From Rhizodiscina lignyota (taxonomy: Eukaryota): a stretch of 64,000 nt of DNA. The notes under the pieces were generated by a model. That model searched no databases, had not been told where the DNA came from, and saw only the letters and a list, made by a program, of their open reading frames with translations. A program made the position numbers and the translations under genes. Where the stretch lies: assembly GCA_010015805.1 (NCBI GenBank), contig ML978128.1, positions 1,240,001 to 1,304,000 on the forward strand, written 5' to 3'. Each line of letters opens with the position of its first letter. Position 1 is the stretch's first letter. Below, in pieces: positions 232 to 8,306 of the stretch.

Positions 232-2274
232 ATGAGAACCGTTGTTGCTCGACATTCAGCCTTTTCTTCAAGCAAGCTTCGAAATGGCCTCTCACACTCC
301 TATGGAGTCTTCTCAATCCCCTACGGAATCTTCTCGCGCTTCTATGGAGCCTTCTCCAAGCCCTCCACTCGTGGTATCGCTCAACCGGCACTTCGCGCTC
401 GGTTTTGCTCGAGTGAACGACTCCGCCTGGTGAAGTCGCATATTCGAGATGTCCAAAGGAAAGATCTTACCACACTTCGCAGTTTATCGACACCGGATCA
501 CAAGAATGAGACCATCTACGCGTTGGCCACTGCCCCAGGCACTTCGGCTATTGCAGTAGTGCGCGTATCTGGTCCTGCATGCAAGAATGTGGGTTGAGAA
601 CGCATCAAGGGTACCACTTATAGACTATCAACTAACGTATTGCACAGATATACTATCTGCTCTCCCTGCGACACACCCTTCCAAGCCCTCGGCTAGCTGT
701 CCTCCGCACGCTCTACGATCCAGCAGATGATGGCATCCTCGACCCGGGTGCATTAGTTCTCTACTTCCCAGCGCCCCACTCATTCACCGGAGAAGATGTG
801 CTCGAGCTGCACATTCATGGCGGTCCAGCAACGATCACAGCGGTGTTAGCAGCCGTACCACAGTGCGCTGCACACTTTGAATGTCCCGAATGCAAAGAAG
901 TCGGGGCCGGTCATGCAATCCGCTACGCTGAACCCGGGGAATTCACCCGTCTTGCTTTCCTCAACAAGCGTCTCTCCCTACCGCAGATCGAAGCTCTGTC
1001 AGCGACTCTCTCTGCGCAAACAGAACAACAGCGGCGCGTGGCAGCGCGAGGCTCGCGCTCGGCACTGTCAGATACGTACGAGGCATGGCGCATGAAACTT
1101 CTTCTGGCGCGCGGCGAGCTCGAAGCGATCATTGACTTTCATGAATCAGAAGACTTTGACGAAACGCCCGAACAGTTGGCGAAGAACGTTGCGCAAATGG
1201 CGCGTGGGTTGTTGGAGGAGATCAAGCTACACAGAGCGAATGCTGTCAGGGGTGAGCTGCTGCGCAGCGGCATTAGCGTCGCGTTTCTAGGAGCGCCGAA
1301 CGCGGGGAAGAGCAGTCTGCTCAACAGGGTTGTGGGCAGAGAAGCCGCAATCGTGAGCCGCGAGGCTGGCACCACGAGGGATATTGTGGACGTAAACGTG
1401 GATTTGGCTGGATGGTACGTTAAATTTGGGGACATGGCGGGACTGCGCGGCAGCAACAGTTCAGGCCACGCGACCTCTGAGAAGGATGAAGTGGGCGAGG
1501 TCGAACAGGAAGGCATCAGGCGCGCGAAGGAGCGGGCGCTGCAATCGGACGTTGTCGTCGTGATCCTCGCCGTCGAACTGGACCCCGAGAACGGCCAGCC
1601 TGTCTTACGCATCGATCCCGAAGTCGTCGCAACGGCGCACGAATGCGCGACGCAGGGCCGCGCAGTCCTCGTTGCCATTAACAAGACCGATAAGCTCGAT
1701 TCGGCCGAAGACGATAATTTTGGCCCCAAAATTATCGCAGCGTGGCGGAAGGAGGTTCAGGCTTCCCTGGGCGTCGAAGAGGGCAGGATCTTCGCTATAT
1801 CCTGCAGGTCCGAGGCAGAGCCGCAAACTAGCCCCCAAAACCAGCCCGGCGGTACAACCACACCAGACCCCGGCCACATCCAAGCCTTCCTGCACGGCCT
1901 GACGTCGACGTTTTCGTCGCTCACTCAGCCCCTGGTCCCCAATCGGGACCCTGCCAATGAAACATATCTCTCCGATATGTCGATTTGGCAGGACTCCTTG
2001 GGGGCCTCGGAGCGCCAGCGAGTGCTGCTGGAGGAGTGTATGGGCCATCTGGAGGTATTTCTGGCCCATACACTCCAACAGCAGAGCTTCGACGTCGTCG
2101 TGGCTGCGGAGAGTCTCCGGGCCGCGGCAGACTGCCTGGCCCGGGTCACCGGGCGTGGGGAAGGCGGAGATGTGGAGGAGGTTCTCGGTGTGGTGTTTGA
2201 GAAGTAAGCCGGCCCGAAGTATTACGGAAACATGAAACTGACACTAGAAGCACAGGTTCTGCGTAGGGAAGTGA
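232..2274 (+). CDS. MSS1: Mitochondrial tRNA modification GTPase (MnmE/TrmE/GTPBP3 family), 3 exons
   Basis: TIYALAT N-terminal motif, SFTGEDVLELHIHGG, GAPNAGKS P-loop, GTTRD, DMAG, NKTD. Introns 589-647 and about 2204-2255 restore the C-terminal FCVGK*. Confidence 0.95.
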
Positions 2275-3089
2275 GGGGACGGGACTGGCGGTGCGGCGGG
2301 GGGCTCTCTTTGCTCTCCGAGCACTAAGTACATACAAATGGAAAGCTCTAACTCCACTCTTCAATTGCCAGTAGAGATCCCAGATTGAATCAACGTGTTG
2401 CTCGAGTAACAAGCTGTGACCGTGCCGTCATGGAATACACAAAGCCTGTTGCCGGCTACAACACCATAAGGAAGGCAACAGAAGAATGCTCTGCCGAAGT
2501 TGGAACAATACCGACGAACAGGTATAACTCTGTAAAACTCTTCGGCGGCAGCCTCAACACATAGGATCTGGCAGATATTGAGTAATATCTCGTGCGTCAC
2601 TAACACGTTTGCAGCATAGATTTGAAGGATTGTGCATCAAGACCTGAACTCCGCTCTATTTTTCCGATCTATTGCCCGAGTACCATAGCAGGTACCATAC
2701 CAACATTCCTCGTGAGACAAGAAAGAAGAATTGGAAAGGGGGGTAGACAGAAAGAAAGACATTTGAAGAAGGATTACAATAAGTATAAAAAAGGCCCAAG
2801 CCCAGCCGGCAGAAAGAAGGAAACACCAGACGACCCGCTATGCCGAAAGAAAAGACGAAAATGAGGAAGACGAATCGAAGACGCTGAACGCAGCAACAGA
2901 AGAAGCAAACTGCAGAATCCACCGCCAACGCTCCAGGCGCCGATGCATCACGAGTCCTTCACCTCCCTCCTCCTCCTCCTCCCAGCAACCCGAGGGCGCC
3001 CGGTCCAGCCAGTGCGGAGTGTGCCATGATGAAATATGTACGCCGTAAATCCCGCCAGCCATATGTACAAATCCCACCCGTGCGCCGAC

Positions 3090-3116
3090 TTAGTTGTAGC
3101 CGCCGCGTCCAGACAT
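3090..3116 (-). CDS. Small ORF 3, predicted micropeptide MSGRGGYN
   Basis: ATG TCT GGA CGC GGC GGC TAC AAC TAA; third AUG of the putative transcript; same peptide core as sORF1 and sORF2 with synonymous differences. Confidence 0.7.
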   Translation of the reverse strand: MSGRGGYN

Positions 3117-3190
3117 CGGTGTCGCTGAAATCAGAAATGAAATTGGTGAAGTGAAGATGAAAAGGTAGATGTGTCGGAGAGGCGCAGCGT

Positions 3191-3214
3191 CTAGTTGTAT
3201 CCGCCGCGACCCAT
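3191..3214 (-). CDS. Small ORF 2, predicted micropeptide MGRGGYN
   Basis: ATG GGT CGC GGC GGA TAC AAC TAG in a strong start context (ATCACC-ATG-G). Confidence 0.75.
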   Translation of the reverse strand: MGRGGYN

Positions 3215-3403
3215 GGTGATGATGATGAAGACGTGGAAGATTATTTTTGAAATTGTGCGATTTGAAATGTTTGTTGGAGATGAGGCACAGCCGAAACCGA
3301 GGAACGTGCGTGTGTCTGTGTGGTGTTGTTGTATGTGGTGATGATCAGATGATGTGAGAGTAGATGAGATGTGTTGATGTATCCGTGCAAGCGACGACGC
3401 GTA

Positions 3404-3427
3404 TTAGTTATATCCGCCGCGACCCAT
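3404..3427 (-). CDS. Small ORF 1, predicted micropeptide MGRGGYN
   Basis: ATG GGT CGC GGC GGA TAT AAC TAA in a typical fungal start context (TTCAAA-ATG-G); first AUG downstream of the TATA box. Confidence 0.75.
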   Translation of the reverse strand: MGRGGYN

Positions 3428-3678
3428 TTTGAAGAAAGGTTGAATATAGAAAATTCGGAATTGAGAGTGTCGAGGTGATTTGTGACAAAAGAAATACGAA
3501 AAGTTGGTGCCTGAAGGAGGTCGAGGACGAAGGAAACCGGTGTATGAAGTGACTCTTTGAGAGGGTTTGCGAGGTGCAGGAAGGTGTGGATGGAGAGATG
3601 TGATTTGACTGTAGGAGAAGGGGATTGCTGTTGACTGAAATCGAAAATCGTTTGACGTTACTTGTATTGGGTCGGGGG

Positions 3679-3731
3679 CTGAGTGTCGAGGACGTGACTC
3701 TTTCTCCGTTAACGAACGAGACGCTGCGTAC
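3679..3731 (-). other. Putative 53-nt intron in the leader of the sORF transcript
   Basis: Minus-strand GTACGC donor, CGTTAAC branch-like site and CTCAG acceptor; size typical of introns in this window. Confidence 0.5.
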
Positions 3732-3964
3732 GCTCTGCAGGAATTAAGGCGCTGTCGAAGAGTGGAAAATTAGAAAAGAGGATTGAGAGTGCCAGAAAGG
3801 ACTGCCTGCGAAGGAAAGCTGTAACGAGCGGCTTGCTAGGAAAAGAAGAGAAGAGAAAACGGAGAGAACGAAGGAAACGGTTGCTGCCTGTGAGGCCGGT
3901 CGAGTGCTTTGCTGTCTGGAATTTGATGATGCTAGAACCCTGGAGAGCCGTGCGAGAGGCTCTA

Positions 3965-3970
3965 CTTATA
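3965..3970 (-). promoter_or_regulatory. Putative TATA box of the sORF transcript
   Basis: Minus-strand TATAAG followed by a CT-rich tract (about 3770-3880) typical of fungal core promoters and 5' UTRs. Confidence 0.5.
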
Positions 3971-6365
3971 TCAACAGCCCTGTGATCGCCGTGGTCAGGG
4001 CAGCAGATGCACCATTGCTGATGCCTCTCAGAACTCAAAAATAAGACAGGTGTAGTACTTCCCGGACGGGAAAGCCGCGCCACTACTGCATCGGACGTCG
4101 CAGCGCTCGAAATGGATCAGGGCCACGAGCTGCGCGTGGGGCAGCGAGCACTGAGTCGAAGACAGGCCGCATAGCCACGGGCCTTGTGCCGTCGGCCAGT
4201 GTGGGAGAGCCAAGAGGGTGTGCGATGAGTGATGATGGAGATGACAAAGGGCTGCAGGAGTAACGGTCGAGGCCTCCACTTCAGGTCTAAATGCGTGCCA
4301 TGCCCGCTCCGGCGACGGTATTGGCCAGCTCAAGGTCAGCGCGGAAAGCAAGCGAACGAAAGCCGCTGAACAGCTCTCTCCACCGCCAGCATTCGTTTAC
4401 CGCTCGTGCGCCACAGATCACACCTCGACGTTGGCTTGCTGCCCGCCATTCTGCGGCGCATGCGTGCCACGCCTTTTACCGCTCGAATGTGGCTTGAAAA
4501 TTGACCGCCCGCTGGCATCTGTAACAGGTTGATAATGATGCGGAGAGAGTCGAGTCGTCTGGATCGGGACAGTCGTCCGATGTATCTGGTCGCTAGCCCT
4601 ACGGCCTGCATTGGCGCTGAGATGGGCAGCGATCGTCATCTGGTTAGTAAGGCGTGCAGCACTGCGCACCGAAGAGGCAATCTGTGTGATTTCGAAGCAG
4701 CCTTCTGGAATTCCCGCGACTTCGCTTTCGCCATCCGTCCACTATATTCAACCCGTTACTCCAACATCGCCTGCCCCAAACGGCCGTTCTGCGAAGTCCG
4801 GCTGCAACCGTCGATCCGTTGGTAGGGCTGTTCCACCCTATGTTCCTGAAATAGCCCCCACTCCACTGCCTCGTCATCAGCACTGTGAAGCTCCTCTGTC
4901 ACGATGTAGCGAGCGCAAGGCATCGTGATTCGTATTATCGCCTGCTGGGGTTCTCCGCCTGCCGAGCACTGATGCCTATACATGACCCGGGCCGAAGATT
5001 GGTCTGTTGTCTGGCGTGGGGGATGGCAAGGCATTCTACGAAACGTCGTGCTGTTGCGCAACTAGGAGCAAGCTTCCGGCGCCTTGTCACATTATCGACA
5101 TCATCGCCCAGTTACGCGATCTGCCTCGAGAATGTTGTGTAAGCTCCGGAATCAGTTGCATTCTCACAGAACCAGGAGCGCGGTGTTCTTCGCATGCTGT
5201 GTCGGTCACGGAGCCGTGGTCGAAATGCGGGAGGTCGTACTCGCCAAAAGTTGAAAGGCAGTTCCTGCATCCATACGGTTTTCCTAGTGCGCGCGACATC
5301 GCCAAGATTGGCATTCTCAACGAAGCAGATGTCGAAATTCATTGTGGGCGGGCCGTGCTTATCCAGCTCGACCCAGTGCAGCGGCTTGGGGACGTTAGCG
5401 GCATGTAAATTTAGTTGGTGGCGCCGTAAGGCAGGCCAATAGGCTCTCGTGTGGAGTTTTGCACACCTCCACTGCCGACTGACCGATTCAAACGTGAACG
5501 CCAGGGCTGTGCCGTCCCGCATAACCACACGGAGAATGTGCGGTAGTGGCTGGAGAGAAGGTGGATGGTCGAGATACCGCTCTGCCCTAAGAAGCGGCTG
5601 AACCCCTTCTGCACGTTATAGGCCGCTCCTGTGGCTTCTGTCGCGCGAAAGCTTGTGTCCAACGAACGTGTTCAGCTCCGAAGCATAGGGAGACTTTGGG
5701 TATTCTGACACACCAATGAGTACACGCCTTGTACGCCTGTATCGGAGAATTGCCGGGCTTGGATATGGCGCAGTTTCGACGTTGCAGCCAAGTCACTGAA
5801 GTTGCAGAGGGATTCTGGTAGGACAGGCATGTGAAGGAATCCCTGAGATAAGGCACCGGTACTCATCGATCTCCCTGAGCCTTGCTTGTGCGATCGATCT
5901 CGAAGAGGCCATGCTGTTCATCTGGAATGCGCGAAATCCATCACGATCCTTCTCCCACGCCGCTGCATCATATCGGCTTGCCTAACCATTCGTGTGTTCG
6001 GAGACGACGTTTGACTCGTTGGACGGAGGCCCTTTCGGTGACTCCGAATCGCAAAGTAAGGGCCGTACATCCTCCCCGCATCTCGAGCCCATGATTCATG
6101 AAGTCAAAGTTAAGCTCGTAAATACGTGTAGTATAGATGAGGGGTTTACTCAAGGGTTCCATGCACGGTGTCTCCTGAGACGGGGTTGGAAAAGGAAGCA
6201 CCAACTCCTCCATCATACTCTTATCTCATTATTCATCAATTTCTCAAGCAATGGTATTGTCATAGTAATTCAGACATGATAGCAATTCTGCAACTTCTCC
6301 ACGTGTAGCTCGTATGTTCTCTCAACGGTGGCCCCACGCCATCGTACTGCGTCCATCGCGCTCTA

Positions 6366-7688
6366 TCAGAGGGAGTATGAGCTGATGTAGTACTGCAAGC
6401 CGTCAGCATCGAGATAGTAGCCGCGGAACAGTTGTTCAGCTCACTGTGAGGACAGAAGGGTCATCGCTATCTTCGTTGTTGCTCAGGAAGACGTAAAGTA
6501 TTAGGGCGTGATCGTCACAGAAACCTGCGCGGCATGTTAGCACAAGGGAACACCGTTACGGCAGCAGCGAGATTACAAGCAATGACTCTTCCACTGAGCC
6601 TTCCCACTGACATGACTTTGCCCCAATCTCGCCCGTCGATTCTAACAGTTGCCCACCCCTCTTCGCTCTTCCCGTCTGCACTTCCTAGCTCTCTCATTCT
6701 TGTGCTGGCATGATGACGGATGCCCTCCTCGCCTCCTTCCACTTGAGCTGGATCGAGATCTGGATTCTGAAGGCCCGTCCAGAGCGTTGAGATATTCATT
6801 GCATCTGTTCTGATACTCAGTCTCAGACAGCCGTGCATGTTCGCCGAAAGCTCCAAACGAGGAGTAGAGTTTGAGTTCCCAGACGTGCCCGACTTCGAAG
6901 CGAGTGCTAATTTCGTGAATCGGTCCGAGATGCTCTTCAACTGGATCAGAGGTGGCAGTTGGATATGCACATCTGGCTCACGACACCTCGGCTCGTGAAT
7001 GCCGTCCACGTTACTTTGGCTGAGGACACGGACGGGGATATCTTGGGTCACAATCGTCTCCCGCTCACGAGAGCTGCTGTTGAAGTCGACACTCGATGCT
7101 CGATCATCCATCGCATCTGGATCTTGTCGAGCGGAAGATGCGCCGAAGGCATCAACCCCAGTTCGATAGGAAACTGTGTTGATTGTGAGGCACAGTACAG
7201 GCAGGCTATCTTTCTTGGTGAGCCTGATGTTGGCCGATGTAGCATTCAGGGCGGATTTGAGAGCGCGCTGGAGCTGTACAACGGGTACTTCGAGGTTGAT
7301 GACATCGTTGTTGGCCGACTGAATCGTATATTGCTCGAAGATAGTGTCCTTCGACGGTCAGCTTTGCATGCGCGATGGAACTATCAAAGCGAAGATTCAA
7401 CTTACTTTCGCCAGCACGCTATATCACGACCACACGGTCAGTAGTGGGAAACTATATAGATATAGACATCACTTACGCCCAAACCTGAGTTCCTTGTTCA
7501 GGTATTATCGTGAAGCGGATTTCATTTTCGTCTAGCCGAACCCACGCCACTGCTCCCAAGGACGCTATGGAGGCAGTAAATTCTAGTCCAAGCGCATTAG
7601 CGATCTGATCTAGCTCTAAAATTTTCAAATCTTTACTACACTTACTGTTAAACGTGTTGATGTTCTGTATGGAGGCCTTGAACCGCAT
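6366..7688 (-). CDS. HUS1: 9-1-1 checkpoint clamp subunit Hus1/Mec3, multi-exon with a 13-nt micro-exon (7406-7418)
   Basis: MRFKASI start, FTIIPEQGTQVWA, ITQDIPVRVL, EPDVHIQLPPL, LELSANMHG, C-terminal LTYYISSYSL*. Confidence 0.9.
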
Positions 7689-8306
7689 CGCGACGCGTTG
7701 GACGCGCGATCATACGCGACAGTCGTGGTATCGGAACGTTGAGTAGTTTGCCTTATACATCCCCGGTCATAAAATATTTCTATTTTGAAGCTTAGGGAGA
7801 CAAGACGGAGAAGAGCGGAAGGTGTTGCGTGATGTATTGTCGAGAGAATGTTAAGCTGTGGCGGGTGAGGTTATGTATGGGACGACTTTGGAGGGACCGC
7901 GCTATGCACTACGGTCAAAGTTTACCGACCACGCTTCATAGCAAAAGTATTGCAAGCCAGAGTTTTATTACGCTAGCAGTCTCAAGTTCATTAATTGCTA
8001 TACGACAGCTTGCGAACAATTCACTGTTCTTCGAAATCTGAGTCATTAAGGTGAGAGCCATCATATGGTCGAATTATAGAAATACTGAGTGTTCAACACC
8101 AGTTCAAAGAGAAATCAACACTCTTCAAATAGCACGGGATTATCAGGGCAGCTGTGTTTATGTTCCTTGTAGAGTGTACGAGAGTTAGTCAGGCCAGATG
8201 AATTGCATTAAGTCTGAATTAATGCTATGTGTTCCTCCGATCCGATCCAACATTTGTTCCACCATCAATTATCCATTGCTTGTTTCCTCCTCGTCGCCGC
8301 CTGCCT

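Follow-up and report, generated by a model that had tools for sequence, protein, structure and literature searches.

A candidate polycistronic gene for GRGGYN micropeptides beside MSS1 in Pezizomycotina

Three GRGGYN open reading frames and their relatives

In a 64,000-nucleotide stretch of the Rhizodiscina lignyota genome (assembly GCA_010015805.1, contig ML978128.1, positions 1,240,001 to 1,304,000; hereafter the window, whose own coordinates are used throughout), we describe three very short open reading frames (ORFs), sORF1 to sORF3, which lie in tandem on the minus strand and encode little beyond the hexapeptide GRGGYN. sORF1 (ATGGGTCGCGGCGGATATAACTAA, 3427-3404) and sORF2 (ATGGGTCGCGGCGGATACAACTAG, 3214-3191, with the start context ATCACCATGG) both encode MGRGGYN, ending in TAA and TAG, respectively, and sORF3 (ATGTCTGGACGCGGCGGCTACAACTAA, 3116-3090) encodes MSGRGGYN and ends in TAA. 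A sequence-only reading, made by a model from the letters of the window, had proposed three minus-strand ORFs, and our reading of that strand returned the same coordinates and peptides. It had also stated that the copies differ only synonymously, and beyond the additional Ser codon of sORF3 we find just four differences, each synonymous or one stop for another (GGT/GGA, GGA/GGC, TAT/TAC, and TAA/TAG). The degenerate GRGGYN-stop pattern GGNCGNGGNGGNTAYAAYTRR, sought across the 64 kb with at most one mismatch, matches the three sORFs only, and it matches in none of 100 dinucleotide-preserving shuffles.

The minus strand around the sORFs is rich in C, T, and A and poor in G. The putative 5′ leader (3428..3631, minus) is C/T-rich, G-poor, and AUG-free, and there is no ATG on this strand in the 500 nt upstream of sORF1. 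Spacer 1 (3215..3403, minus; 189 nt) contains no ATG against 1.44 expected and cannot be aligned across lineages, and spacer 2 (3117..3190, minus; 74 nt) contains none against 0.5 expected.

Facing the sORFs from the plus strand is the main exon (636..2207) of MSS1, a TrmE/MnmE-type mitochondrial tRNA-modification GTPase, recognized through PF10396, PF01926, and PF12631 as well as named fungal homologues; against the named homologues from ascomycetes, mainly Dothideomycetes and Eurotiomycetes, its identity is 49-56% for most of those listed. The upstream neighbor, on the same strand as the sORFs, is HUS1 (6515..7709, minus; Pfam Hus1 PF04005, 2.1e-62). The two neighbors thus assign the window to a filamentous ascomycete, for which the protein collection offers no near relative. 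The gap of ~3.1 kb between HUS1 and sORF1 (3428-6514) holds no ORF longer than 167 codons, and the seven ORFs at 3709-5615 have no Pfam match.

Relatives were sought by scanning metagenome contigs with the 24-nt pattern ATG-GGN-CGN-GGN-GGN-TAY-AAY-TAR and keeping 2-kb flanks, which yielded 62 loci (L001-L062). Two to three exact matches, on one strand and 80-280 nt apart, are present in 25 of the 62, and when the flanks were scanned at the peptide level, 36 had 2-3 GRGGYN-stop ORFs, always on the same strand; the clustered homologues in other fungi that the sequence-only reading anticipated are thus present. As a control, 596 Gb of genomes from bacteria and archaea were scanned with the identical pattern; three loci (L063-L065) came out, each with a single match, and we set these aside as likely chance. 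All three are Oscillospiraceae-type gut metagenome-assembled genome records (Subdoligranulum, Gemmiger, and Acutalibacteraceae), and they may represent one conserved protein end rather than independent chance matches. L022 and L048 are likely chance as well, with a G+C content of 0.59-0.60, a motif that ends an ORF of ~160 codons, and no MSS1 in ~2 kb downstream. In L018 and L061 a lone MGRGGYN ORF precedes a different ORF of 36 codons; these two loci may belong to another type or represent a paralogue, and L061 lacks MSS1 in 1.2 kb downstream.

A tblastn search with the window MSS1 finds that gene in 34 of the 62 loci, lying downstream on the opposite strand in the same convergent layout as in the window, and from the locus coordinates MSS1 lies 460-1450 nt past the last ORF. 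In 25 of the 28 loci where MSS1 was not found, the sequence extends less than 1,250 nt downstream, and another, L062, has the same core as L001, whose MSS1 starts ~1,450 nt downstream; because most of these loci are short of downstream sequence and because of the L062/L001 match, we take the tail-to-tail arrangement to be the rule. Synteny with both MSS1 and HUS1 had been suggested for testing, and of the two it is MSS1 that travels with the sORFs; the 2-kb flanks of the remaining loci do not show HUS1, and no conserved protein-coding gene was found in the 2 kb upstream across them.

MSS1 also gives an indication of lineage. Among the Pleosporales-like loci, L055 has an MSS1 91% identical to that of Parastagonospora nodorum, and those of L002, L006, L007, L025, and L054 are 72-74% identical to Dothideomycetes versus 45-55% to Eurotiomycetes. 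L009 (66% versus 54%) and L013 are Eurotiomycetes-like, and in other lineages, the window included, MSS1 is about equally distant from Dothideomycetes and Eurotiomycetes.

Selection acts on the peptide motif

To sample copies by nucleotide likeness alone, we took 45 representative loci, one per distinct core and with truncated duplicates dropped, and collected from -600 to +900 nt any 24-mer with no more than seven mismatches to the first copy of the same locus. This recovered 46 secondary (paralogous) copies, and none when the anchors were shuffled. Within the 18-nt core, 119 of the 126 mismatches fall at codon position 3 (binomial P ~1e-47), and the codon differences comprise 117 synonymous and six non-synonymous changes, with ATG, frame, and stop retained, as expected if the divergence is synonymous as the sequence-only reading proposed. 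Gly is encoded by all four GGN codons, Arg by CGC, CGT, CGA, and AGA (and by AGG in L026), Tyr by TAC and TAT, and Asn by AAC and AAT; the stop follows immediately after the motif in 80 of the 92 motif ORFs counted (TAA in 60, TAG in 16, and TGA in 4). The MSGRGGYN form of sORF3 recurs in L032. Pairwise identity among 18 diverse loci (153 pairs) is 0.83 for the motif and 0.50 for the first spacer against a shuffled baseline of 0.49, and since the spacer is at the shuffled level, conservation is confined to the segment from ATG to stop, which had been claimed from the window copies.

In six loci (L005, L010, L011, L012, L026, and L059) a canonical intron lies inside the motif itself, in phase 2 of the third motif codon. 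Its donor is GTAAGY, GTACGT, or GTAAAG, its branch site CTAAC or CTGAC, and its acceptor CAG, with a length of 54-61 nt in the five loci measured. The intron-bearing ORF comes after the first MGRGGYN, and consists of ATG and 8-19 codons with an acidic end, then G-R-G, then the donor; the exon after the intron reads G-Y-N (G-H-N in L010), followed by a stop or by three to four further codons, such that the predicted splicing rejoins GRGGYN in frame. Intronless relatives (e.g., L034/L050, L037, and L045) have identical acidic residues before the motif in one piece. A DNA motif cannot explain the element, because the intron splits the motif, which is read only after splicing on this strand.

These results bear on a non-coding reading, in which the ORFs are incidental and the repeat serves as a DNA or RNA element, for instance a site for a transcription factor, an RNA motif bound by a protein, or a structured RNA. 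The core CGCGGCGG is G+C-rich inside a G-poor region and the locus has further blocks conserved at the nucleotide level (described below), both of which would suit such an element. However, the variation lies at synonymous sites and includes changes from CGN to AGA or AGG, ATG and stop are retained, and the intron splits the DNA motif in six loci. Rfam gives no matches in 2200-6500 at E values up to 1, and the folding energy of 3085-3440 on the minus strand is not in excess of shuffles (z = +0.26). This reading is close to refuted, and selection acts on the peptide motif GRGGYN, as the sequence-only reading surmised: the codon-position-3 bias, the use of CGN, AGA, and AGG for Arg, and the motif-splitting intron all speak for the peptide and not for a DNA repeat.

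Longer motif ORFs, signs of ribosome scanning, and flanking elements

Some loci carry the motif within longer ORFs. Double-motif ORFs of 19-45 codons, with GRGGYN at both ends, are present in five of the 45 representative loci (L009, L013, L028, L038, and L041), and in L047 an ORF of 25 codons combines an exact motif with an altered one. When the L013 double-motif ORF was searched against a collection of 5.8 billion proteins, a single relative was found, P0002, of 65 residues and with two motifs. Past the motif, the longer ORFs continue with a small residue and a Pro (N-A-P, N-G-P, N-S-P, N-V-P, and N-T-P), a sequence feature that may mark processing. Cleavage there could free a C-terminal Asn as in the 7-codon ORFs, and ribosomal peptide precursors of fungi typically hold their core in several copies; both points would suit a role for the ORFs as precursors of a processed or chemically modified small molecule, such as a signal that is secreted, a peptide that is cyclised or methylated, or a cofactor derived from a peptide. 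Yet the motif ORF peptides have no signal peptide, Kex2-type dibasic site, or leader, and the 2-kb flanks hold no linked tailoring enzyme, with no conserved gene upstream and only MSS1 downstream. We consider a precursor function improbable.

The regions between and before the ORFs are depleted of start codons. Across 38 spacers between motif ORFs there is one ATG versus 28.3 expected, and G makes up 10% of the sequence, so the AUG-free, G-poor character that the sequence-only reading saw in the two window spacers extends to the other loci. At least 150 nt before the first ORF are ATG-free in 35 of the 38 loci with enough sequence, where the probability by composition-matched shuffling is 0.33 per locus. 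The spacing from start to start is 81-281 nt and is a multiple of three in 13 of 38 cases, which is the chance level and indicates that the motif ORFs are independent of one another. Readthrough linking the copies was considered, as the first two sORFs of the window are in frame with each other, and rejected on the same 13 of 38. Strong start contexts had been claimed for two of the window copies; at the level of the family such a context is not general, the -3 base being at background in first copies (A in 11 of 43) and A in 19 of 30 second copies. This difference fits leaky scanning past the first ORF together with reinitiation after it. The spacers, at 11-209 nt, leave no space for separate promoters, and a single mRNA that carries all of the ORFs would be the economical reading.

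Past sORF3 lies ORF-C (2838..3062, minus), an ORF of 74 codons with RRLERWR at 2942-2922. The sequence-only reading had found no convincing long ORF to follow the sORFs; this overlooks ORF-C (3062-2838 as read on the minus strand). There is no long main ORF before MSS1. An ORF-C-type ORF of 34-74 codons with the motif (L)RK(R/Q/K)RxERWR is present in the window and in L002, L003, L006, L007, L025, L032, L037, L044, L046, and L055; for the window and 11 other loci, the distance from the final GRGGYN ORF to the motif is 132-215 nt. Its codons vary synonymously, with Arg among CGN, AGG, and AGA. ORF-C has no Pfam family, and the L007 version has no relative in the 5.8-billion-protein collection.

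The position of ORF-C raises the main rival to a free peptide, namely that the GRGGYN ORFs are cis-acting regulatory upstream ORFs (uORFs), possibly with a nascent-peptide effect, that meter ribosome flow to ORF-C or control how stable or how long an antisense transcript into the MSS1 3′ end is; the peptide would then have no life of its own. Tiny conserved uORFs do exist in fungi, with amd-motif examples of 6 and 8 codons (PMC5640933). In 11 of 12 ERWR loci, among them the window, ORF-C opens at the first AUG past the last GRGGYN ORF, the stop comes right after the motif in the 80 of 92 motif ORFs given above, and convergent MSS1 lies just 460-1450 nt past the last ORF, an adjacency across distant lineages that suggests coupling. 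ORF-C is the only candidate for a main ORF, though, and the ERWR motif is present in just 17 of the 62 loci and the window, whereas GRGGYN is present in all; elsewhere, what comes next is MSS1 on the opposite strand. Known stalling uORFs are single, and here there are 2-3 identical copies and double-motif ORFs, in the manner of a dosage device, and the six spliced and five double-motif ORFs carry residues past the motif, unlike termination-linked arrest. We regard regulation in cis as unlikely on this evidence, although the deeply conserved tail-to-tail pairing with MSS1 keeps it in play, and return below to a peptide that acts in trans.

Both flanks of the sORFs contain elements that are conserved as nucleotides. 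The 3′ block (3034..3069, minus) consists in the window of TGTACATA (3069-3062), a gap of ~20 nt, and GTACATAT (3041-3034); the full order is TGTACATA, GTACATAT, and ATGTACGA, and it begins 20-23 nt past the last stop in the window, L004, L015, L017, L035, and L057, and farther downstream in L056, L016, and L049. It is a nucleotide-level element, because the reading frame is not kept between loci, and a candidate 3′-end or RNA-binding-protein element, and it resembles UGUAHAUA-type protein-binding sites and yeast-type 3′-end efficiency elements.

On the upstream side, an initiator-like TCAGTCA (3632..3638, minus), 211 nt before the first ATG, marks a candidate transcription start region, and most of the 29 loci listed have TCAGTCA or TGAGTCA at 95-390 nt ahead of their first ORF. 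TGAGTCA is the consensus of Gcn4/CpcA-type factors. In a Pleosporales-like subset (L002, L006, L007, L016, L025, L029, L032, L046, L054, and L055) ordered blocks occupy the region 100-700 nt before the first sORF: CCAAT, TGCGGCTC, CACTGCCAC, GCTGCGCAGT, GATGACTAGATGCC, TATAAAG followed by GGATGCCTGG, a second CATATAAG, TTGAGTCA, and TCAGTCATCC, of which TTGAGTCA and TCAGTCATCC are 95-260 nt ahead of the first ATG. By comparison with consensus sequences, these blocks and the window TCAGTCA would be a putative core promoter and start site, and for a putative promoter it is unusually well kept.

A proposed micropeptide gene and its comparison with known systems

We propose an unannotated Pezizomycotina gene that lies tail-to-tail with MSS1 and gives rise to a short, sometimes spliced transcript of RNA polymerase II, which would carry two to four cistrons. 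These would be one to three ORFs of 7-8 codons (M, MS, MA, or ME, then GRGGYN and a stop), to which many lineages would add a longer ORF with either an acidic N-terminal extension or two GRGGYN motifs, and the window and one clade would add an ORF of 34-74 codons that bears the basic motif (L)RK(R)RxERWR. Ribosomes would scan the AUG-free, G-poor leader and spacers and reach the successive AUGs via leaky scanning and reinitiation, yielding several GRGGYN copies per mRNA, most likely as a free ligand or competitor of 6-8 residues that acts in trans, as for the arthropod gene tal/pri. The repeated ORFs, the double-motif ORFs, and the varying copy number look like a dosage device, and we favor a trans-acting free peptide because of this repetition and because the architecture is close to that of tal/pri. 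From its sequence features, the locus very probably codes for peptide and is polycistronic; trans action, which is argued by analogy, we see as evenly balanced; and the proposal as a whole, of an unannotated polycistronic gene with peptide-coding GRGGYN ORFs and a trans-acting product, strikes us as probable by a modest degree. The interpretation offered by the sequence-only reading, a fungal micropeptide gene, gains from the clusters, the MSS1 synteny, the synonymous divergence, the intron, and the AUG-free spacers.

Several points weigh against this proposal. No RNA run covering 2850-3780 is listed, the sole public run that contains this DNA, itself an assembly of DNA reads, shows flat cover without joints, and no transcript, ribosome footprint, or peptide has been observed; nor is there poly(A) at metagenome contig ends, so that metatranscript contigs are not recognisable. 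Free peptides of 6-8 residues, the form proposed to act in trans, are usually short-lived in the cytosol. Some of the longer ORFs continue past the motif (with APH, TPAQ, SP, and the like) and do not end in it, so the active species is undefined, and the -3 base of the first copies is at background. The metagenome scan was conditioned on the peptide pattern, and lineages with a changed or lost peptide cannot appear in it; the anchor copy of each locus is synonymous by construction, and only the secondary copies are an unbiased sample. The taxon labels of the loci rest on one protein, MSS1. There are also altered copies: MGRDGYN in two unrelated loci (L030, oriented 1020-1043, and L060, oriented 569-592), EGRGDYN in L047 (oriented 938-961), and an interrupted copy in L056 (oriented 1281-1304) in which the Arg codon is TGA. 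These four copies lie within clusters that are otherwise intact, and L057 has a further altered copy, TGRGGHS.

More speculatively, the gene could be an independent fungal counterpart of tal/pri that is ancient, predating the split between Dothideomycetes-like and Eurotiomycetes-like lineages, with free GRGGYN active either as a mimic of RGG-type motifs or in cross-talk with MSS1, in which case no shorter functional peptide with an ORF of its own would be known from eukaryotes. We advance this version tentatively and think it rather less than probable. As a mimic, the peptide may target a conserved machine of RNA biology, e.g., an import receptor, an arginine methyltransferase, or a 3′-end factor; alternatively, the cross-talk may be with the physically tied mitochondrial tRNA-modification gene MSS1.

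We found no description of the gene in a literature search on GRGGYN and polycistronic or small ORFs in fungi, from which subscription-only papers and supplements were outside the scope. GRGGYN appears in published work on the yeast Hrp1 import signal and on a synthetic RGG peptide, both unrelated to this gene, which is also not mentioned in passages from a 2024 review on hidden elements of fungal genomes, a survey of small ORFs in fungi, and a survey of fungal RNA motifs. This kind of gene is known from arthropods; the family, the kingdom, the 7-codon size, and the MSS1 linkage are new within the literature searched. If its transcription and translation are confirmed, a 7-codon ORF would be under purifying selection across fungal classes, bringing the limit for an independently encoded functional peptide below the 11 residues of tal. 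The polycistronic, repeated-micropeptide design would then have arisen independently outside animals, and the gene would expose a blind spot of annotation, with no ORF-C homologue and one double-motif relative in 5.8 billion proteins. It would also be small enough to test in tractable fungi, including plant-pathogen relatives, with the fixed MSS1 link providing a concrete hypothesis.

Among known systems, conserved-peptide uORFs reportedly include the arginine attenuator peptide of arg-2/CPA1 and the MAGDIS uORF of AdoMetDC. Like these and the amd-motif uORF, the GRGGYN ORFs are very short, have conserved amino acids, and lie in an AUG-poor leader; unlike them, they are repeated, where the known examples are single and act in cis before a long main ORF. 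No long main ORF fits before MSS1, and GRGGYN is also internal in longer ORFs. Leaders of the GCN4/cpc-1 type have several short ORFs in series and work by reinitiation. The serial arrangement is shared, but the uORF peptides of GCN4/cpc-1 are not known to be conserved as sequences, and the uORFs serve a long downstream ORF.

Ustiloxin-type Kex2-processed precursors are single ORFs with a signal peptide, dibasic sites, and linked or dedicated enzymes, and Qsp1 of Cryptococcus comes from a precursor of 24 residues. The likeness of multi-core ribosomally synthesized and post-translationally modified peptides (RiPPs) and of Qsp1 to the fungal locus lies in many copies of a short peptide per gene, or in a small peptide as signal; in contrast to RiPPs, every GRGGYN ORF stands apart with an ATG and a stop of its own, and the peptides have neither a leader nor Lys-Arg (KR) sites. 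The RGG/PY nuclear-import signal of yeast Hrp1, as tabulated in PMC8140498, contains GRGGYN verbatim. We treat this match of six residues in a low-complexity region as a lead only and not as a sign of mimicry.

The closest parallel is tal/pri/mlpt (tarsal-less, polished rice, or mille-pattes of arthropods). The tal mRNA has three 11-codon ORFs, a 32-amino-acid ORF AA with the motif at both ends, and an Arg-rich ORF-B of 49 amino acids, with ORFs spaced by 40-200 bp, which suits reinitiation, and a copy number that varies across lineages (Galindo et al. 2007, PMC1852585). Set beside tal, the fungal locus has, on what would be one mRNA, several very short ORFs with the same motif (one to three, of 7-8 codons), a longer ORF with the motif at both ends (19-45 amino acids against 32), a terminal, weakly conserved Arg-rich ORF (ORF-C for ORF-B), and a spacing of 81-281 nt from start to start. 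It differs from tal in its shorter peptides, in the intron that one lineage has within the motif, and in its fixed synteny with MSS1; the translation and function of tal were shown by experiment, whereas the fungal locus is known from sequence. All of the fungal ORFs encode GRGGYN and none has the LDPTGXY core, so the locus is no member of the family by homology and the likeness is convergent. With tandem motif ORFs on one strand, a spacing compatible with reinitiation, and no long ORF, it would nonetheless work in the way that tal/pri/mlpt does.

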